Origin: an uncultured Planctomycetia bacterium
GTDB lineage: Bacteria; Omnitrophota; Gorgyraeia; Velamenicoccales; Velamenicoccaceae
Assembly (NCBI GenBank): GCA_964622605.1
Contig: CAZUQR010000001.1
Span: 135,265-199,264 of the forward strand
DNA: 64,000 bases
Direction: 5' to 3'
Shown: piece by piece, positions 12,201 through 61,693 of the stretch
How the letters are laid out: each line of letters starts with the position of its first letter
How positions within the stretch are numbered: the stretch's first letter is position 1
Made by a program: the position numbers and the translations under genes
The notes under the pieces: model-generated
Databases searched by the model: none
The model's input: only the letters and a program-made list of their open reading frames with translations
Told to the model about the DNA's origin: nothing

Positions 12201-13289
12201 ATGCTGTATCATCTCCTGGTCCCCCTCCGGGATCTCTTCGCCGGATTCAACGTCTTCCGCTACATCACCTTTCGCTCGGCCATGGCGGCGATCACGACCT
12301 TCTTCTTTTGCGTCATCTTCGGCGAGCGGCTCATCCGGCGCCTGGCCGCGCTCAAGGTCTGCGAGACGGTGCGGCCCAAAGAGGAGGTGCGCGGCCTGTA
12401 CGACCTGCATCACCACAAGGAGGGGACGCCCACGATGGGCGGGGTGATCATCGTCGGCGCGGTCGTGGCGGCCATGGTCCTGTGGGGGGATCTGGCGAAC
12501 CGGTACGTGCTTTTGACGTTGTTCGCGACGCTCTGGCTGGGGGTCGTAGGTTTCATCGACGATTACATCAAGCTGCGCTTCCGGCGCCGGGGCCTGAGCG
12601 TCAAGGCCAAGTTGCTGGGGCAGCTGCTCCTGGGGTTGACGCTGGGCGTCTTCGTGTATCTGGATCCCAACGTCCCCGCCACGCTCGATATCCCCTTCCT
12701 GAAGGACGCGGCGGTGCATCTCGGCGTCTTCTACGTCTTCTTCGTGATGCTCGTCGTCGTGGGGACCTCCAATGCGGTGAATCTCACCGACGGCCTGGAC
12801 GGCCTGGCCACGGGGTGCATCCTGATGGTGGCCTTTTCGTACGGCATCATGAGTTACCTCTCCGGTCACGCGCGCTTCAGCCAGTATCTCTTGATCCCCT
12901 ACATCGATGGCGTGGGGGAGCTCGCCGTCTTCTGCGCGGCCGTGGTCGGCGCCTGCCTGGGATTCCTGTGGTTTAACTGTTATCCCGCCGCGGTCTTCAT
13001 GGGGGACGTGGGGGCGTTGGCCCTGGGCGGCGCGATCGGCGTGGTGGCGGTCCTGATCAAGAAGGAGCTCTTGCTCGTGATCGTCGGCGGCGTCTTCGTC
13101 GCCGAGGTCGTATCGGTCATCGTGCAGGTGGCGTCTTTTAAATGGCGCAAGAAGCGCGTCCTGCGCATGGCGCCGCTGCACCACCATTTTCAAATGTTGG
13201 GTTGGGCGGAACCGAAGGTGATCGTCCGTTTCTGGATCATCGCGGCGATCCTCGCGTTCTTCACCCTGGCCACCCTGAAGCTCAGATGA
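12201..13289 (+). CDS. mraY: Phospho-N-acetylmuramoyl-pentapeptide transferase
   Basis: Polytopic membrane protein with KEGTPTMGGVII and NAVNLTDGLDGLA motifs. Confidence 0.95.
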   Translation: MLYHLLVPLRDLFAGFNVFRYITFRSAMAAITTFFFCVIFGERLIRRLAALKVCETVRPKEEVRGLYDLHHHKEGTPTMGGVIIVGAVVAAMVLWGDLANRYVLLTLFATLWLGVVGFIDDYIKLRFRRRGLSVKAKLLGQLLLGLTLGVFVYLDPNVPATLDIPFLKDAAVHLGVFYVFFVMLVVVGTSNAVNLTDGLDGLATGCILMVAFSYGIMSYLSGHARFSQYLLIPYIDGVGELAVFCAAVVGACLGFLWFNCYPAAVFMGDVGALALGGAIGVVAVLIKKELLLVIVGGVFVAEVVSVIVQVASFKWRKKRVLRMAPLHHHFQMLGWAEPKVIVRFWIIAAILAFFTLATLKLR

Positions 13290-14542
13290 CGTCCTATCAA
13301 GGCAAGCGCGTGACGGTGATCGGCTGTGCCCGCAGCGGCATGGCCGCGGCCCAACTGCTTCGGCGCCTGGGCGCCCGCGTCTTTGTCACGGAGAGCGCGA
13401 CATCCCCGGCCATCGCCGAGCGCTTTGAGGCCTTGGCCGCCGACGGCATCGAAGGCGAGAAGGGAGGCCATACCGAGGAGGCCCTCGCGGCGGCAGACCT
13501 CGCTGTCTTAAGCCCGGGCGTTCCCTTGGACGCCGCGCCGGTCCGCTGGGCCCGTGCGCGCGGGATCGAGGTCGCCAGCGAAATAGAATTGGCGGCCTCG
13601 GTGTGTCGGGCGCCGATCATCGCCGTGACGGGGACCAACGGCAAGACGACCACCACGACCCTGATCGGTCTCGTGGTGCGCGCGTGGGGCCGCCGGGCGC
13701 ACATCCTGGGCAACATCGGTTCGCCGTTTTCTCTTTGCGCCGATCAGATCGAACCCGAAGACTTCGTGTGCCTTGAGGTGAGCTCTTTTCAGCTGGAGAC
13801 GATCCGGAGGTTCAGGCCCCGCGTGGCCGTTGTCCTCAATCTGACGCCGGACCATCTGGACCGTTATCCCGACATGGCGGCGTACCTTGAGGCGAAGAAG
13901 CGCATCACCATGAATCAGGGGGCCGAGGATTGGCTCGTTTTGAATCACGGCGAGAAGCGCCTGCGTCCTCTCACCGGTGCCACGCGGGCGCGCGTCGTTT
14001 TTTTTAATAAGGGACCGCAAGGGGCGCGGCTTGACGAGAACCAGATGGCGGTGCGGACGGTGGCGGGTTGCCTGGGCATCCCGCAGGAAAAATGCGACGA
14101 GGTCTTCGCCGCCTTCACGGGCGTCGAGCACCGTTTGGAGTTCGTGCGCACACTCGACGGTATCGACTTCATCAACGACTCCAAGGCCACCAATATCGAT
14201 TCGACGGCGTGGGCGCTTAAGAACGTGCGCCGGCCTGTGGTCCTGATCGTCGGCGGCCGCGACAAGGGCAGCGACTTCGGTCGCATCGCGCCCCTGGTGC
14301 GCGCCAAGGCAAAGGCCGCCGTCGTCGTCGGGGAGGCCGCCGAGCGCATCGCAGCCGCGTGGCAGGGCGTCCTGCCCATCCGCCGCGCCGCCGCCTTTGA
14401 CGAGGCGGTCACGGTCGCCTTTGGTCAGGCCCGCGCGGGCGAATGCGTCTTGTTGTCGCCGATGTGCAAGAGCTTTGACATGTTCACGGACTACGAGCAC
14501 CGCGGCCGCGTCTTCAAGGAGCTCGTGGCGCAGCTGAAGTAA
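13286..14542 (+). CDS. murD: UDP-N-acetylmuramoylalanine--D-glutamate ligase
   Basis: Internal ATG 13286 (ATGA overlap with mraY). N-terminus KRVTVIGCARSGMAAA and P-loop AVTGTNGKTTTTTL. Confidence 0.92.
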   Translation: MTSYQGKRVTVIGCARSGMAAAQLLRRLGARVFVTESATSPAIAERFEALAADGIEGEKGGHTEEALAAADLAVLSPGVPLDAAPVRWARARGIEVASEIELAASVCRAPIIAVTGTNGKTTTTTLIGLVVRAWGRRAHILGNIGSPFSLCADQIEPEDFVCLEVSSFQLETIRRFRPRVAVVLNLTPDHLDRYPDMAAYLEAKKRITMNQGAEDWLVLNHGEKRLRPLTGATRARVVFFNKGPQGARLDENQMAVRTVAGCLGIPQEKCDEVFAAFTGVEHRLEFVRTLDGIDFINDSKATNIDSTAWALKNVRRPVVLIVGGRDKGSDFGRIAPLVRAKAKAAVVVGEAAERIAAAWQGVLPIRRAAAFDEAVTVAFGQARAGECVLLSPMCKSFDMFTDYEHRGRVFKELVAQLK

Positions 14543-14559
14543 CGGACCCGCATCCGGAT

Positions 14560-14709
14560 GGGGTCTCTATGTGGCGGACGAAGTTTTTCGCCGTCGGCTA
14601 CGGTTTAGGACTCGTTCGTCTGGCGACATACATCTTCGCCGCCGAACTCGTCCTAAAACCTTGCCGACGCTTGCCGAAAAACTTCTGATTGTCCGCCACA
14701 TAGAGCCCC
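14560..14709 (+). repeat. Long imperfect palindromic intergenic element, family A copy 1 (core 14577-14697)
   Basis: The arm GGGGTCTCTATGTGGCGGACGAAGTTTTTCG pairs with CGAAAAACTTCTGATTGTCCGCCACATAGAGCCCC. The core is homologous to 25481-25600. Confidence 0.85.
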
Positions 14710-14736
14710 CCTCCGGACGCAGCTCGGGAAATCATC

Positions 14737-15831
14737 ATGCGACGATTACGGATCTCCATTTTTGTCACGACGTTCATCCTGATCTGTATCGGCGTCGTGA
14801 TGATCTACAGCGCAAGCTGTGTCACGGCGTGGCAGAGCTCGGGTGAGAGCACGCAGCTGTTGCGCAAGCAGGCGCTCTTTGTCCTCTTCGGGTCCCTCGC
14901 GATGTTCGGCGTGATGGCGATGGACTACCGCGCGCTCAAGAAGGTCGCCAAGCCGCTGTTCCTCCTTTCGCTGCTGCCGCTGGTCGTCGTCCTCCTGCCG
15001 GGGGTCGCGCATGAGGCGGGCGGGGCCAAGAGGTGGCTGAGCCTGGGCGGCTTCAACTTTCAGCCGTCGGAGTTCATCAAGGTCGCGCTCGTCATCTACC
15101 TGGCGGATTTTATCACCCGGCGGGCGCCGTACCTGAAAGACTTCTGGAAGGGGTTTGTTCCGCCGATGACGGTGCTGGGCGCATCGGTCCTGCTGATCCT
15201 GCTCCAGCCGGACCTGGGGACCGCCGTTTCGCTCGTGGTCCTGACCTTCGCGATGCTCTTCGTGGCGGGCTGCCGGATGCGGCACATCTTGTACAGTATC
15301 CTGGCGGCGCTGCCGGCATTGTATTTTTTGATCTTCAGCGTCCCGTATCGGCGGGCCCGGATCATGATCTTTCTGAACCCCTGGCTCGATCCCAAGGGCA
15401 GCGGTTTCCAGATCATCCAGTCGCAGATCGCCCTGGGGACGGGAGGCTGGTGGGGTGTGGGCCTGGGGCAGGGCAGGCAGAAGCTTTTTTACCTGCCGGC
15501 GGCGCACACCGATTTTATCTTTTCGATCATCGGCGAGGAGCTGGGGCTCCTGGGCACGGGATGCGTGATCTTACTCTTTGTCTATCTCATCATCAGCATG
15601 GCCCGCGTCGCGTGGCAGGTCCGTGATCCCTTCGGCAAGATGATCTGTGTCGGCGTCCTGGTCCTCATCGCCTTTTCCTCGGCGATCAATATCGGTGTCT
15701 CGATGGGCGCGCTGCCCACGAAGGGGCTGCCGCTTCCCTTTATCAGCTACGGCGGATCGTCGCTCATCTTTCACATGATCGCCGTGGGGTTGTTGTTGAA
15801 CGTTTCGCGGGCCGAGGAGACGGTCTTGTGA
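14737..15831 (+). CDS. ftsW: SEDS peptidoglycan glycosyltransferase FtsW
   Basis: Ten-TM SEDS protein (QPSEFIK, QPDLGT, GGSSL motifs) in the murD-ftsW-murG position. Confidence 0.9.
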   Translation: MRRLRISIFVTTFILICIGVVMIYSASCVTAWQSSGESTQLLRKQALFVLFGSLAMFGVMAMDYRALKKVAKPLFLLSLLPLVVVLLPGVAHEAGGAKRWLSLGGFNFQPSEFIKVALVIYLADFITRRAPYLKDFWKGFVPPMTVLGASVLLILLQPDLGTAVSLVVLTFAMLFVAGCRMRHILYSILAALPALYFLIFSVPYRRARIMIFLNPWLDPKGSGFQIIQSQIALGTGGWWGVGLGQGRQKLFYLPAAHTDFIFSIIGEELGLLGTGCVILLFVYLIISMARVAWQVRDPFGKMICVGVLVLIAFSSAINIGVSMGALPTKGLPLPFISYGGSSLIFHMIAVGLLLNVSRAEETVL

Positions 15832-23740: not shown

Positions 23741-24570
23741 GCGGTAAAGACGTCACCATCGGGATCGTCGGCTGCGGCAACATGGGCGCGGCGTTCACGT
23801 CCTCTATTTCGCGCCACCTGCCTCAATGGGGTATCATCCTTTATGACATCGACACGGCCAGGCAGGAAGGGGTCGTGCGTCGCCTCGGCGGCCGCGGTGC
23901 GTCTTCGCTCGAGGATCTGATCGAGGCGAGCGCCGTCGTTCTCATTGCCGTCAAGCCTCAGGATATCGATCCGGTCCTCGCGGCGGCGCGGGGCCGGCCC
24001 CGGAAACTCGTCATCTCCATCGCCGCCGGCATCCCTTTGACCTATCTCGAAAGGGCCTTGGCCGGAGGCGCGGTCGTGCGGGCGATGCCGAATCTCAACG
24101 CCCTGATCGGCCGCAGCGTGACGGCTCTCTCTTTTGGTCCGTCCGTGAGCGCCCCCCATCAGGCGCTCGCCAAAATGGTCCTTGAGGCCGTGGGTGCGGT
24201 CGTCGTGGTTCCGGACGGGCAGATGAATGCCGTGACGGCTGTCTCGGGCAGCGGTCCGGCCTTCGTCGCCTACCTGAAAGATGTCGTGCCGGCTGACGAG
24301 ATTGCGCGGGTCATGATCAAGGCGGCACAGGAGCTTGGTATCGAGAAAGGGACGGCCCAACGCCTGGCCCACGCGACGGTGTCGGGGACGCTGGCTATCT
24401 TGTCGGTCAACTTTGACGCGCCGACGCTCATCAAGCGCGTCTCCTCCAAGGGCGGCACCACGGAAGCGGGCATGGACCTTTTGGAAAATGAGGGCAAGAC
24501 GCCTCAGGCCCTGATAGCGGCGATCCATGCGGCGTGCCGCCGGGCCGGGGAGCTATCGAAGGAGCATTGA
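23737..24570 (+). CDS. proC: Pyrroline-5-carboxylate reductase
   Basis: IGIVGCGNMG Rossmann motif and the C-terminal SKGGTTEAG signature. Confidence 0.9.
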   Translation: MSGKDVTIGIVGCGNMGAAFTSSISRHLPQWGIILYDIDTARQEGVVRRLGGRGASSLEDLIEASAVVLIAVKPQDIDPVLAAARGRPRKLVISIAAGIPLTYLERALAGGAVVRAMPNLNALIGRSVTALSFGPSVSAPHQALAKMVLEAVGAVVVVPDGQMNAVTAVSGSGPAFVAYLKDVVPADEIARVMIKAAQELGIEKGTAQRLAHATVSGTLAILSVNFDAPTLIKRVSSKGGTTEAGMDLLENEGKTPQALIAAIHAACRRAGELSKEH

Positions 24571-24571
24571 C

Positions 24572-25435
24572 ATGGCGAAGGTCGGGATCATAGGGGGCAG
24601 CGGTATTTATAAGATGGAAGGGATCAGGGATCTCAAGGAGGTCGCCCTCAAGACGCCCTTCGGGGAATCCTCCGACGTCTTTCGCACGGGCACGCTTGAG
24701 GGCGCGGAGGTGGTCTTTCTGCCGCGCCACGGCTCCCGGCACACCCTGTCTCCGTCCGAGATCAATTACCGGGCGAACGTCTTTGGGATGAAGATGCTGG
24801 GCGTAGCAGCTCTCATTTCGGTCTCCGCCTGCGGTTCCCTGAAGAAAGAGCTCAAGCCCCTGGATTTTGTCCTGCCGGACCAGTTCGTGGACAGGACGAA
24901 CAGCGGCCGCGTGATGACGTTTTATCGCGGCGGCGTCGTCGCGCACGTGGGTCTCGCGGACCCCGTCTGCGCGCGCCTTTCGGGCATCGTCTACGAGACC
25001 GCAAAGGGGATGGGGCTGTCGGTCCACCGGGGCGGCACGTACCTGAACATGGAAGGGCCGGCGTTCTCGACCCGCGCGGAGTCCAACCTCTACCGTTCCT
25101 GGGGTATGGACATCATCGGGATGACGAACATGGCAGAGGCCCGCCTGGCCCGTGAGGCCGAGATGTGCTACGTCACCATCGCCGCCGTGACGGATTACGA
25201 CTGCTGGTACGAATCCGAGGAGTCGGTGACCGTGGAGATGATCATCGCCAACCTGACGAAGAACGCCGAGAACTCAAAAAAATTGCTCAAGGCGGTCGTC
25301 CGGAAGGTCGCCGACGTCCCTGCGTGTGCGTGCCGCGACGCGCTTAAATACGCCATCATCACGCCGAAGGACGCGATCCCGGAGAAGCTGAAGAAAGACT
25401 TAGCACCCCTGATCGGCAAGTACCTCGGCACCTGA
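24572..25435 (+). CDS. mtnP: S-methyl-5'-thioadenosine phosphorylase
   Basis: Internal ATG 24572. MAKVGIIGGSGIY, FLPRHG and GMTNMAEARLAREAEMCY motifs of the PNP/MTAP family. Confidence 0.85.
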   Translation: MAKVGIIGGSGIYKMEGIRDLKEVALKTPFGESSDVFRTGTLEGAEVVFLPRHGSRHTLSPSEINYRANVFGMKMLGVAALISVSACGSLKKELKPLDFVLPDQFVDRTNSGRVMTFYRGGVVAHVGLADPVCARLSGIVYETAKGMGLSVHRGGTYLNMEGPAFSTRAESNLYRSWGMDIIGMTNMAEARLAREAEMCYVTIAAVTDYDCWYESEESVTVEMIIANLTKNAENSKKLLKAVVRKVADVPACACRDALKYAIITPKDAIPEKLKKDLAPLIGKYLGT

Positions 25436-25453: not shown

Positions 25454-25623
25454 GGCTGGACGGGGCTTTTTCCTCCGTCAGACGAAGTTTTTCGCTCATC
25501 GGCGCGGTTTGAAACGCGCTGCTCGGCGACATAACGCTTCGCCTGCGCACGCGTTCCAAATCCTTGCCGACATCTGCCGAAAAACTTCTGGTTGTCTGCC
25601 GGGGGAGAAAGCCCCGCCCAGCC
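25454..25623 (+). repeat. Long imperfect palindromic intergenic element, family A copy 2 (core 25481-25600)
   Basis: GGCTGGACGGGGCTTTTTCCTCCGTCAGACGAAGTTTTTCG pairs with CGAAAAACTTCTGGTTGTCTGCCGGGGGAGAAAGCCCCGCCCAGCC. The core aligns with 14577-14697 in the same orientation. Confidence 0.85.
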
Positions 25624-25637
25624 GATCGAAGAGCCGG

Positions 25638-25863
25638 CGGGGGGACCGAGGCGGGGCAGGATATAGCGGGGGACGTGACCCCTTCCCTCGCGGGGCATGT
25701 GGACGGCCGAAAGCGGCCACGGTTCGCTGCCCCTGGATATCCCGCGAGAGCGAAGGCCGGACACACTGAGCGAAGTCCGGCCTCGGTGGGGTCGGACGAG
25801 CATACCCGCGAGGGAAGGGGTCGCGTCTCCCACATGGGTGGAATGCCTCGGACAGGCCCCGCC
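25638..25863. repeat. GC-rich modular palindromic repeat, family B copy
   Basis: Termini GGGGACCGAGGCGGGGCAGG and GCCTCGGACAGGCCCC are shared with 38931-39042 and 61376-61693. Internal near-perfect 23-bp inverted repeat GACGTGACCCCTTCCCTCGCGGG (25672-25694) and CCCGCGAGGGAAGGGGTCGCGTC (25805-25827). Confidence 0.8.
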
Positions 25864-25879
25864 AGCCGTTGATCACGCT

Positions 25880-28687
25880 ATGGATTACAAGAAGACGCTG
25901 AACTTACCCAAGACCGACTTTCCGATGAAGGCGGACCTCGCCCGGCGCGAGCCGGCGACGCTGGCCGCCTGGCAGGAGATGGACCTTTACGGCCTGATGC
26001 GCCGGAAGGCGCAGGGCCGGCCGAAGTTCGTCCTGCACGACGGGCCGCCGTACGCCAACGGCCGGATCCACATCGGCCACGTCCTCAACAAGACGCTCAA
26101 GGACATCGTGGTGCGCTATCGGTTTTTAAAAGGCCACGACACGCCGTACATCCCGGGCTGGGACTGCCACGGCCTGCCGGTTGAGCACGCCCTCTTCAAG
26201 GAGTTGCACAAGACCAAGGACCAGGTGGACCGCGTCGCCTTCCGCAAGATGGCGCATGATTACGCCATGAAGTACGTCGGCATCCAGCGGGAGGATTTCA
26301 GGCGTCTGGGCATCGTCAGCGACTGGGAGCATCCGTATCTGACCCTCGGTCACGGTTATGAAAAGGTCCTCCTTGAGGCGTTCGCGACGCTCGTCGAAAA
26401 AGGGTACGTGGCGCGGGGCCTCAAGCCCGTGAACTGGTGTTACACGTGCGAGACGGCCCTGGCGGAGGCGGAGGTCGAGTACGCGGACCACGCATCGGAT
26501 TCCGTCTTCGTGAAGTTCGCCCTCAAAGCGGATGCGCACGCCGCCGCCCTCGGCTTAAAGGAAGGGTCGTTTCTCCTGATCTGGACCACGACGCCGTGGA
26601 CCCTGCTCGCGAACGTTGCGGTCGCGCTGCATCCGGACCTCACGTACGTCTGTGTCCAGAAGGCGGGGGTCTCCATTATATTAGGTAAGGACCTTTTTGA
26701 GGCGGGCCTGAAGGAGAAGCTGGGCTGGGGCGCTGCCAAGGTCAGCCGTTCTTTCAAGGGGGCCCAGCTCGAAGGCCTGACGTATGAGCATCCGTTCGGA
26801 TTGCGCGAAGGCAAGGTGGTCCTGGCGGATTATGTCTCCAAAGGGGAAGGGTCGGGTTGCGTGCACACGGCCCCCGGCCACGGCCAGGAAGACTTTTTGA
26901 CCGGCAAAAAATACGATCTCCCGGTCATCGTTCCCGTCGACGGGCGGGGCCGGTTTGACGACACCGTGCCGCACTGGGCGGGTGAGCACGTCTTTGAGGC
27001 CAACGAGGGCATCATCGAGAAGTTGCGCCATGATGGGTTACTGCTGGCTGCCGAAAAAGTCACGCATTCGTATCCGCACTGCTGGCGCTGCAAGAGCCCG
27101 ATCATCTTCCGGGCGACCCACCAGTGGTTCCTCAAGATCGACCATGAGGGGTTGCGTCAGAAGCTTCTTGACCGTATTGAAAAGGACGTGACCTGGATAC
27201 CCGCTTCGGGACGCGAGCGGATCGCGGCCATGGTGGCCCTGCGGCCGGATTGGTGTTTGTCGCGCCAGCGCTATTGGGGTGTCCCTATCCCGGCCCTCGT
27301 CTGTCGGGCCTGTGGACAACATACGTTGGACGGTCGTGTCATCCGCCGGCTGGCCGAGCGCGCGGCCGACGAAGGGACGGACGCGTGGTTCCAGGTGCCG
27401 ATAAAAGATTTCATCCCGTCGGGGCTCCGCTGCGCGTGCGGCGCCGCGGATTTTGACCGCTCGACCGACATCCTGGACGTCTGGTTCGATTCAGGCGTCA
27501 GCCATCAGGCGGTGCTCAAAGGCCAGGAGGACCTGAAGTTTCCGGCAGACCTGTACCTGGAGGGTTCGGACCAGCACCGCGGATGGTTCCAGGCGTCGCT
27601 CATCTCCTCCGTCGCGATCGACGGCCGGGCGCCGTACAAGGCCGTCCTGACGCACGGCTTTGTCGTGGACGGGGAGGGTCGCAAGATGTCCAAATCCCTG
27701 GGCAACGTCATCGCCCCCCAGGAGGTGATCAAGGAGTCCGGCGCCGATATCCTGCGCCTGTGGGTGATGGCCAGCGACTACAACGAGGACGTGCGTCTCT
27801 CCAAAGACATCCTGAAGAACTGCGCCGACGCCTACCGCAAGATCCGCAATACCGCCCGTTTCCTGTTAAGTAACCTGTATGACTTTGATCCAAAGACGGA
27901 TCGGTTGGCATGGACGGATCTTTCAGATATCGACCGTTGGGCACTTTATAAGCTTGGCCATCTTCAGGCTGACGTTACGAAGGCCTATGACGCCTATAAG
28001 TTCTATATTGTTTTTCAAAAAATTTACAGCTTCTGCAATGAAGATATGTCTTCGCTCTACCTGGACATCCTGAAGGACAGACTGTATACGGCCGGCAAGA
28101 AATCGAAGCTGCGACGCTCTGCTCAAACCGCCCTTTACGAGATCTTGATGCGACTCGTTAAGTTCTTGGCTCCCGTCGTGCCTTTTACGGCCGAAGAGAT
28201 CTATCGTTGTGCACCCCGCGCACAAGAAGATGATTTTGAAAGCGTGCACCTGTCTTTCTGGCCCAGGCTCAATCAGGATTCGGAAGATATCAATGTAAAC
28301 ATCGCCAAACAAATGGATCCTAAGGGAACGATAGATCTCGATAAGATCCTTAGCCTGCGACCGGCGATCCTCAAGGCCCTGGAAGACAAGCGCGCCGCGG
28401 GCGCGATCGGCAGTTCGCTCGAGGCGTGCGTGCACCTGTCGTTAAAGGAAGCCGTGCTCTACCGTCACTTCGAGCGGCACAAGCAGGACCTGCGGTCTAT
28501 CTTTATCGTCTCCGCGATGGATGTGGTTCTAGAGGAGGGCCTCGATGAGCCGTTTGCCCTCAAGGTGGAGCGGGCGGCCGGCACGAAGTGCGCGCGCTGC
28601 TGGAATTATGCCCGGGACGTCGGCGCCGATGGCGTCCATCCGGGCATCTGCGGCCGCTGTGTCGCCGCCGTCGGCGAGCAGGAGTGA
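25880..28687 (+). CDS. ileS: Isoleucine--tRNA ligase
   Basis: Start at ATG 25880 ([20 protein letters not shown]). The upstream part of ORF 25697 runs through repeats. HIGH motif (RIHIGH), KMSKS, and a C-terminal Zn-finger CARCWNY..CGRC. Confidence 0.95.
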
Positions 28688-61375: not shown

Positions 61376-61693
61376 ATGCGGCGGGGGACCGAGGCGGGCG
61401 GCCCATCCGCGCGCAGCGGAAGGGGCGCTGGCGCGACGAGTAAGGAGCGCCGTTTAGCGCTCACCGCCTGAGAGGGTGAGGCGGCCCGGGGCGCACCAAG
61501 CGCCCACGCCCAACCTAAGGTGTCGAGCAGAAAAGGCTCCCGCGGGGGATGGGGCGCTGGTCGGCCGAATAAGGCCGACCGGGTAGCGCGACGGCTCAAG
61601 ATGTGAGGCCGGCCGGGGCCGCGGAAGCGGCCACACCGAGCTGGGATGACGAGCGATGCACGCGAATGGGGCGATCGCCTCGGCCAGGGCCCG
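61376..61693. repeat. GC-rich modular palindromic repeat, family B long copy
   Basis: Shares GGGGACCGAGGCGGGCGGCCCATCCGCGCGCAGCGGAAGGGG with 38931-38977 and 25641-25657. Shares the block ATGTGAGGCCGG..GGAAGCGGCCAC with 25696-25724. The 3' end GCCTCGGCCAGGGCCCG resembles the other copies. Confidence 0.8.

Follow-up and report, generated by a model that had tools for sequence, protein, structure and literature searches.

A dispersed palindromic DNA repeat, probably of the REPIN/MITE kind, in an Omnitrophota genome

The window analyzed here is a 64,000-nt stretch (C1:135265-199264) of an Omnitrophota assembly (GCA_964622605.1; 1.92 Mb in 43 contigs, C1-C43; 94% complete), referred to below as G000. 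It holds two copies of a long-hairpin element, family A, one between murD and ftsW (copy 1) and one between an mtnP-like gene and ileS (copy 2). Family A is probably a dispersed, non-coding palindromic DNA repeat of the kind represented by REPINs (hairpin-forming doublets of REP sequences) and miniature inverted-repeat transposable elements (MITEs), and not an RNA gene. It is new as a family; the kind of small mobile DNA to which it would belong is already known. An earlier reading of this DNA, made from the sequence alone (the sequence-only reading), had described both copies, and its description is confirmed where it placed the element but understates what is there.

Anatomy of the two copies in the window

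The core of copy 1 lies in the murD-ftsW spacer at 14577-14697, as had been read: GACGAAGTTTTTCGC begins at 14577 and ...TTGTCCGCC closes at 14697. Copy 2 had been given a core of 25481-25600 in the mtnP-like/ileS spacer; the location is right, while the last bases already belong to the 3’ arm and the core is 25481-25596. Both copies are on the + strand, in the same orientation as claimed, and the sequence blocks said to be common to them were recovered. The inner stems differ between the copies yet are self-complementary within each (TTTAGGAC/GTCCTAAA in copy 1, TTTGAAACGCG/CGCGTTCCAAA in copy 2). A length of about 120-150 nt had been proposed; the hairpin is real, but the palindrome runs about 25 bp past the core on each side, giving about 170 nt for the whole unit. 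The parts of the two copies are as follows.

14550-14722, + strand: whole predicted hairpin of copy 1, which fills the murD-ftsW spacer (14543-14736)
14554-14716, + strand: clear palindrome of copy 1, with CCGG ends
14554-14576, + strand: 5’ outer-stem arm of copy 1, CCGGATGGGGTCTCTATGTGGCG, pyrimidine-rich and copy-specific; pairs with 14694-14716 in the fold
14576-14590, + strand: 5’ terminal inverted repeat of the copy 1 core, GGACGAAGTTTTTCG (family consensus CAGACGAAGTTTTTCG); little or no variation among the 17 aligned copies
14604-14611, + strand: 5’ side of the hypervariable inner helix of copy 1, TTTAGGAC; partner GTCCTAAA at 14650-14657
14622-14640, + strand: apical stem-loop of copy 1, GGCGACATACATCTTCGCC, a subfamily 1 apex (fold and alignment)
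14675-14695, + strand: conserved 3’ terminal inverted repeat of copy 1, CGAAAAACTTC-TGATT-GTCCG (fold and alignment)
14694-14716, + strand: 3’ outer-stem arm of copy 1, CGCCACATAGAGCCCCCCTCCGG, purine-rich (fold)
25454-25623, + strand: whole palindrome of copy 2, in the mtnP-like/ileS spacer (fold)
25454-25480 and 25597-25623, + strand: outer arms of copy 2, pairing with each other around the core (25481-25596)

Both folds are exceptionally stable (copy 1, -105.3 kcal/mol, z = -12.0; copy 2, -108.4 kcal/mol, z = -9.4), and none of 200 dinucleotide shuffles of either copy folded as well. The outer stems of the two copies differ from each other in sequence and are complementary within each copy. 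The TGATT at 14686-14690 forms a conserved 5-nt bulge that is the source of the element’s polarity. No T-run follows either copy, so that the two do not have the form of intrinsic terminators, in agreement with the sequence-only reading; canonical terminators occur elsewhere in the genome (e.g., C1:13-47).

On the minus strand the bulge side (e.g., 14680-14695) reads AATCAGAAGTTTT, a single base short of the IHF-type consensus WATCARNNNNTTR. TTATT or TTCTT replaces TGATT in about one third of the copies, and the likeness to an IHF-type site may be coincidence.

Copy number and architecture in the genome

The family was collected over G000 by BLAST and with an nhmmer profile, the kind of search that the sequence-only reading had suggested. 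‘Present twice’ holds within the window; genome-wide, the count is about 30 copies or fragments. Fifteen are close full-length copies, and 6 more are full-length with a divergent apex (subfamily 2); another 4 are longer, at 173-330 nt, and there are several half copies or fragments. Eleven contig ends lie inside family A copies, and the true copy number is therefore probably higher. All copies are located between long open reading frames (ORFs), in both orientations (gene calls here and below are crude longest-ORF calls), within tens of bases of gene ends and in one case between genes of the essential dcw operon. The copies have no conserved ORF in common.

Comparison of all copies resolves a unit of about 170 bp in three tiers. 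The outer stem (about 25 bp) has the ends GGCCGGA...TCCGGCC and is copy-specific, following the pattern GGCCGGA-N-GGG...CC(T/C)-rich...CCG-N-CA; its 5’ arm is pyrimidine-rich and its 3’ arm purine-rich in every copy. The middle stem is highly conserved; its two sides are the terminal inverted repeats that bound the core, which is about 118 bp long (CAGACGAAGTTTTTCG ... CGAAAAACTTC-TGATT-GTCTG). The inner helix is variable and is capped by at least two apex types, which define subfamilies 1 and 2. As in MITEs, the element is small and non-coding, and its 118-bp core ends in inverted repeats, namely CAGACGAAGTTTTTCG and its complement with a 5-nt insertion.

Covariation that looks more like DNA than RNA

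Seventeen complete copies were aligned, and the RNAalifold structure of this alignment has 54 pairs. Paired cells make up 92.8% of the total, compared with 78.7 ± 0.7% after column shuffling. Of the 54 pairs, 32 show changes on both sides where 19.9 ± 2.0 are expected, and none of 500 shuffles reached 32. Shifting the partners by 1-3 columns reduced pairing to about 50%. The two variable helices contain 102 double-change cells vs. 11 one-sided (wobble) cells, and both sides changed in 7 of the 11 pairs of helix 4 of the alignment. The sequence-only reading had held that the hairpin is retained despite divergence, and the strong covariation over 17 copies bears this out. That reading was to fall if only two copies existed and their covariation lacked support; there are about 30 copies, and the covariation is strong.

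The covariation is real, but several features argue against selection on one transcribed strand. Since A·C on one strand is G·U on the other, comparing these two mismatches is informative: outside the apex there are 18 G·U and 24 A·C cells, an independent count over whole arms gave 47 and 62, and a strand-specific wobble signal was found in neither count. Purine-pyrimidine swaps, for which no wobble intermediate is possible, occurred in 20 of the 54 pairs. Between co-directional genes, about 10 copies are in sense and about 8 in antisense orientation. In the copy 1 orthologue of a same-genus genome (G001), an indel of 3 nt affects both outer arms.

The sequence-only reading had also suggested a search of Rfam, which gave no match to an RNA family: in a permissive scan of 14300-14950 against Rfam 15, the best overlap was Xoo2 at 18.8 bits (gathering score, 45). 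Of the options that it had offered, a REP/MITE-like element is now favored; a structured RNA does not follow from the covariation. Compensatory changes are common in the hairpins of REPINs (PMC3116915), and covariation alone is thus no evidence for RNA function. More generally, covariation in a multi-copy hairpin must not be counted as proof of a functional RNA, as mobile palindromic DNA gives the same signal; the symmetry of G·U and A·C together with the orientation of copies can separate the two.

Gain and loss of copies between related genomes

All genomes compared are metagenome bins, among them two of the same genus as G000 (G001 and G002). The mtnP-like/ileS spacer has 450 nt in G000 vs. 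75 nt in G001 and 72-73 nt in G002; copy 2 is absent from both relatives, and the surplus in G000 consists of copy 2 and a hairpin of an unrelated repeat, family B. The spacers of G001 and G002 are too diverged for the breakpoints of copy 2 to be placed. Copy 1 has an orthologue in G001 (92% identical, stem intact), and in G002 the murD-ftsW spacer contains other repeat DNA in its place, including a family B member. At 54 other Omnitrophota loci, murD and ftsW are separated by about 1.5 nt (median), and no family A copy was found in this junction at any of 80 loci. In public genomes, the FtsW loci nearest to that of G000 all come from Candidatus Omnitrophota bins. As the two genes normally abut, copy 1 represents an insertion into a tight junction of the dcw operon.

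For 16 further copies, the two flanks were joined as one query and matching regions were fetched from the relatives, giving 18 sites with copies 1 and 2. A family A copy is present at 4 of these sites in G001 and a full copy at 1 in G002. At several sites the flanks are contiguous in the relatives, with the gap empty or occupied by an unrelated short hairpin, and 4 of the 18 sites keep a short remnant or truncated copy. One remnant in G002 (GGGCCGGCTGGAGATACTTTCCGTCCGGCC) resembles a deletion between TCCGT repeats. Given both remnants or truncated copies and empty sites, gains and losses of copies are both likely, and sites filled only in G000 are most simply read as gains. Family A is thus polymorphic for insertion between close relatives, as MITEs are.

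A comparison with 41 relatives showed family A in 10 of the 21 that share the taxonomic family of G000; elsewhere in the class, 3 families have it. In a sample of 300 genomes from the phylum it was detected in two families only, a lower bound given that 2 candidates per genome were scored. No viral contigs carrying the element were found. On these surveys, family A appears restricted to part of the Omnitrophota.

Recombination, nesting and solo palindromes

Besides copy 1, there are 4 sites shared with G001 or G002, and at these the core differs in subfamily, orientation or both. At one (C12:43953), the right outer arm is orthologous to that of G001, and the left arm and core come from another lineage. 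This is the only copy with mismatched arms; one breakpoint lies inside the left arm, and the mismatch points to a recombination tract.

Mantel correlations are substantial between the 5’ and 3’ arms (r = 0.50) and between middle stem and apex (r = 0.65), as against r = 0.04 between outer and middle stems and 0.18 and -0.04 between outer stem and apex. Judged from these distances, the genealogies of outer stem and core are decoupled. Some cores that are 92% identical sit within outer stems differing at 9-10 of 16 pairs, with every difference compensated. Over 166 nt, a span that takes in a related outer stem, copy 2 matches its closest paralogue (C33:23-188) at 90% identity, and over the core at 94%, which indicates that whole units are also copied.

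Solo outer-stem palindromes occur once per genome, at C16:4549-4576 in G000 and, after rodA, at C9:30013-30054 in G001. They share the centre CTGCCGGCAG, located exactly where the core lies in filled copies, and the one in G001 is a perfect 46-bp palindrome (GGCCGGATGGGGGATCCTCTGCCGGCAGAGGATCCCCCATCCGGCC). Other repeats nest in the element. At C9:55185 the 5’ arm of a family A copy surrounds a palindrome of 165 nt from a further repeat family; relatives of this palindrome lie within family A arms in G000 (C9:55100-55290) and at metagenomic loci L177 and L201. The longer family A copies hold two nested modules, X and Y. All occurrences found of module X lie within family A. Module Y (GGCGCTGGTCGGCCGAATAAGGCCGACC...GAGGCGGCCCGGGGCCGCGGAAGCGGCC), GC-rich and about 100 nt long, forms a family of its own with about 40 copies, often in tandem pairs (e.g., C1:74820-74920, and 61424-61653 of the window, equivalent to C1:196688-196917), and is nested in several family A copies.

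Search for a mobilizing enzyme

IS110, DDE_Tnp_1, rve and TnpB domains were all absent from the G000 assembly. Four genes with a Y1 domain were found, for which the best match is the NCBIfam model of the REP-associated tyrosine transposase (RAYT); these RAYT-like genes are the sole transposase-like genes among the five families searched.

C9:40138-40821, - strand: RAYT-like gene, bracketed by its own low-GC REP family
C6:14183-14803, - strand: RAYT-like gene, bracketed by its own low-GC REP family
C5:82413-83348, + strand: RAYT-like gene, bracketed by its own low-GC REP family
C20:7341-8504, - strand: fourth RAYT-like gene, encoding 387 aa; 72.6 bits, just below the NCBIfam cut-off of 80

The REP families around the first three genes (...GTAGAAACGACACTA..., AAACCCCGTTTGGAAACGGGGTTT and GGGACTAAAAGAGCC...) recur on many contigs. 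Three REP/RAYT systems are an unusual number for a 1.9-Mb genome.

The 387-aa protein has an N-terminal Y1 domain, a hydrophobic segment (LVLPLVSSMVVAAVAGSVLFFA) and a C-terminal domain of about 130 aa, and its gene has no flanking repeats; it may be a domesticated or membrane-tethered HUH enzyme. Full-length orthologues occur in 5 of 9 sampled genomes with several family A copies vs. 3 of 32 others, and span several genera of the family. A link of this protein to family A is a weak lead, confounded by relatedness.

We also inspected 56 metagenomic loci with an exact 5’ end of family A. A matching 3’ end lies 80-120 nt downstream in 39 of them, and 8 have none within reach. Nearly all are short non-coding elements; a few are truncated or at contig ends, and one is an apparent chance match in unrelated sequence. 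The only widely spaced end pair, 2.5 kb at L216, was considered as an autonomous element and rejected, its 3’ motif being a chance match in sugar-epimerase genes.

Interpretation and alternatives

If family A is a mobile DNA repeat, its units would occasionally spread as whole hairpins to new intergenic sites, would often be deleted, and would frequently be reshuffled by recombination or gene conversion between copies. The complementarity of the arms would be kept at the DNA level, possibly by correction of one arm against the other in the hairpin (quasipalindrome template switching) or, alternatively, by a requirement for a single-stranded DNA hairpin during mobilization; the step from maintained pairing to either mechanism is one that we infer. 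For the enzyme, an HUH/Y1 (RAYT-like) protein that acts in trans would be the most plausible candidate. Transcription through a copy, as in the dcw operon, would give an mRNA with a very stable hairpin and no U-tract, and may alter processing or stability; this would be a side effect and not the element’s raison d’être.

Several observations weigh against this reading. Family A flanks none of the four RAYT-like genes, and the arrangement of a REPIN/RAYT system, a cognate single-copy RAYT gene surrounded by the same repeats, was not found in G000. An autonomous element was found neither in G000, which has no widely spaced end pairs, nor among the 56 metagenomic loci; metagenome bins often lose insertion sequence copies, and the absence of an autonomous one is therefore weak evidence. 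Alignments of filled and empty sites gave no consistent target-site duplication at 10 sites; the self-complementary ends (GGCCGG) would mask any 4-bp duplication, and the solo palindromes fit both a 2-bp CG duplication and none. Simple copying of whole units followed by mutation does not predict cores of 92% identity within outer stems that differ at more than half of their pairs. The evidence for mobility is all comparative, and recombination with deletion could explain part of it. Finally, palindromes are hard to assemble, and chimeric joins or orientation errors at them are possible in metagenome bins.

The decoupled genealogies raise the alternative that the outer stem is an older, resident palindrome (a ‘landing pad’) and only the core of about 118 bp is mobile, homing to the palindrome tip, where it is excised, replaced or inverted. 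This would account for the differing core subfamily or orientation at four orthologous sites, for solo outer stems centred on CTGCCGGCAG at the core position, and for the nesting of other families in family A, including the different palindrome enclosed by family A arms at C9:55185. We nevertheless consider it unlikely: solo outer stems are very rare (one per genome vs. about 25 filled ones), where G001 and G002 have no element, the outer stem is in most cases missing too, the related outer stems of copy 2 and its closest paralogue are what whole-unit copying predicts, and the breakpoint at C12:43953 falls within the left arm, which fits recombination and not a clean insertion at the tip. An extended version, a ‘palindrome-in-palindrome’, would have the core cassette home in on resident palindromes at their tips, where it would be exchanged or inverted, with the arms rewriting each other in a single-stranded hairpin and a RAYT-like HUH enzyme, perhaps the membrane-anchored one of 387 aa, as catalyst. 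We hold this to be quite unlikely; if true, it would be a hairpin-templated, site-reusing mobility that has not been described for REPINs or MITEs.

Two further explanations place selection on the host or on the RNA. Family A might be a structural element selected by the host, such as a site for RNase III or other processing, an mRNA stabilizer, a U-less attenuator separating operon genes or a site for a nucleoid protein. Copies do lie tens of bases from gene ends, also within the essential dcw operon; the unpaired TGATT bulge, internal loops and apical loop are conserved in sequence; copy 1 is kept with an intact stem at the same G001 site; the bulge side (AATCAGAAGTTTT) is a candidate for a site near the IHF type; and REP, ERIC and Correia repeats are known for such side functions (see also PMC3733652). 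Against this, the sites are not conserved in congeneric genomes or other Omnitrophota, the two orientations are equally frequent, the family is limited to parts of two families of the phylum in a survey that gives a lower bound, and the bulge has a form other than TGATT in about one third of copies. A host function may exist as a side effect; it fails to explain the distribution, and as the main explanation we regard it as very unlikely. A family of stand-alone structured RNA genes, each copy transcribed independently, would be consistent with the very stable fold, the strong covariation and the conserved loop and bulge sequences. It would not explain the lack of a strand-specific wobble signal, the many purine-pyrimidine double changes or the paired indel in one orthologous pair; there is no Rfam match, no conserved promoter- or terminator-like sequence is evident by eye in the alignment (no promoter scan was run), and congeneric genomes differ by gain, loss, truncation and recombination of copies. 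We consider this reading extremely improbable, and a mobile DNA repeat of the REPIN/MITE kind remains the favored explanation.

Neighboring genes and other repeats in the window

The genes around the two copies, and two other repeats in the window, are the following.

13142-14542, + strand: murD, upstream of copy 1 (Pfam Mur ligase domains)
14737-15831, + strand: ftsW, downstream of copy 1 (Pfam FTSW_RODA_SPOVE, E = 3e-115)
24527-25435, + strand: mtnP-like phosphorylase, PNP_UDP_1, upstream of copy 2 (Pfam)
25637-25872, + strand: family B, an unrelated repeat that likewise forms a long hairpin (about 235 nt) and immediately follows copy 2; absent there in G001 and G002
25886-28687, + strand: ileS (Pfam), with the conserved start ATGGATTACAAGAAG at about 25886 by alignment with the G001 and G002 spacers
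37977-38165: 165-nt palindrome after rodA, a further repeat family, at the site orthologous to that of the G001 solo palindrome

Family B has about 8-10 copies in the genome (e.g., C2:101209-101432, C12:28168-28388 and C13:12967-13158). The 996-aa ileS ORF that begins at 25697 is an overcall, in which 25697-25885 reads through the repeat.

Meaning for Omnitrophota genomes

This is a streamlined genome of about 1.9 Mb, about 93% of it under ORF calls, yet it carries several structured repeat families: A, B, Y, a fourth palindrome and three REP families with RAYTs. Such repeats break assemblies (11 contig ends in family A alone), lengthen spacers in essential operons (murD-ftsW, upstream of ileS) and yield false long ORFs, as in the overcalled ileS start. 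The G000 file also contains many runs of about 100 N (e.g., C1:46504-46604), which repeat scans return as false perfect palindromes. Family A can serve as a marker for strain-level comparison and as a natural system in which to study how bacteria keep long palindromes complementary, and it supplies defined substrates on which RAYT-like enzymes from an uncultivated phylum could be tested.

Comparison with known systems

The long-hairpin MITEs of bacteria include ERIC/IRU in enterobacteria, Correia elements in Neisseria and bcr1 in the Bacillus cereus group. These are 100-170 bp long, have terminal inverted repeats, are intergenic inside operons in both orientations, show insertion polymorphism between close relatives and are co-transcribed as stable hairpins; they have defined target duplications (TA, TTTAT), and for some, IHF sites or RNase III cleavage have been shown experimentally. 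Family A resembles them in size, terminal inverted repeats, intergenic sites, both orientations and insertion polymorphism. It differs in that no target duplication can be defined and in that it is known here from sequence alone. To our knowledge, family A has no sequence similarity to any of the three.

Integron attC sites are imperfect palindromes in which structure is conserved over sequence and extra-helical bases give polarity, and they occur in cassette arrays next to an integrase. Family A is likewise a structure-conserved imperfect palindrome with polarity from conserved extra-helical bases, but its copies are single and scattered among housekeeping genes. With the mosaic REP clusters known as bacterial interspersed mosaic elements (BIMEs), it shares a mosaic structure with nesting of palindromic modules; Y, X, family B and the fourth palindrome are found within it or next to it.

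CGTC/GTAG REPs are described (PMC3733652) as sequences of 20-40 bp with an 8-9 bp stem, a loop of 4-5 nt, an unpaired tetranucleotide head and a short tail. Measured against that description, the arms of family A lack the anatomy of head, stem and loop: each has a weak local palindrome only (GAC-GAA GTTT TTC-GCC-GTC) and no stem of 8-9 bp. CGTC does occur at the junction of outer stem and core, and no dedicated transposase was found for family A, as the same source states for CGTC REPs.

REPINs, the REP doublets that form hairpins and are mobilized by RAYTs, were described in Pseudomonas fluorescens SBW25 (PMC3116915). Family A differs from them in being longer (about 170 bp) and built in three tiers, in having no obvious REP stem-loop in its arms, and in the arrangement of the RAYT-like genes, which are not flanked by it and three of which carry other REPs. 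Shared by the two are a long hairpin in single-stranded DNA or mRNA, conserved ends around a variable, compensated interior (PMC3116915), extragenic and non-coding copies in the tens to hundreds, and the presence of RAYT-like genes in the same genome.

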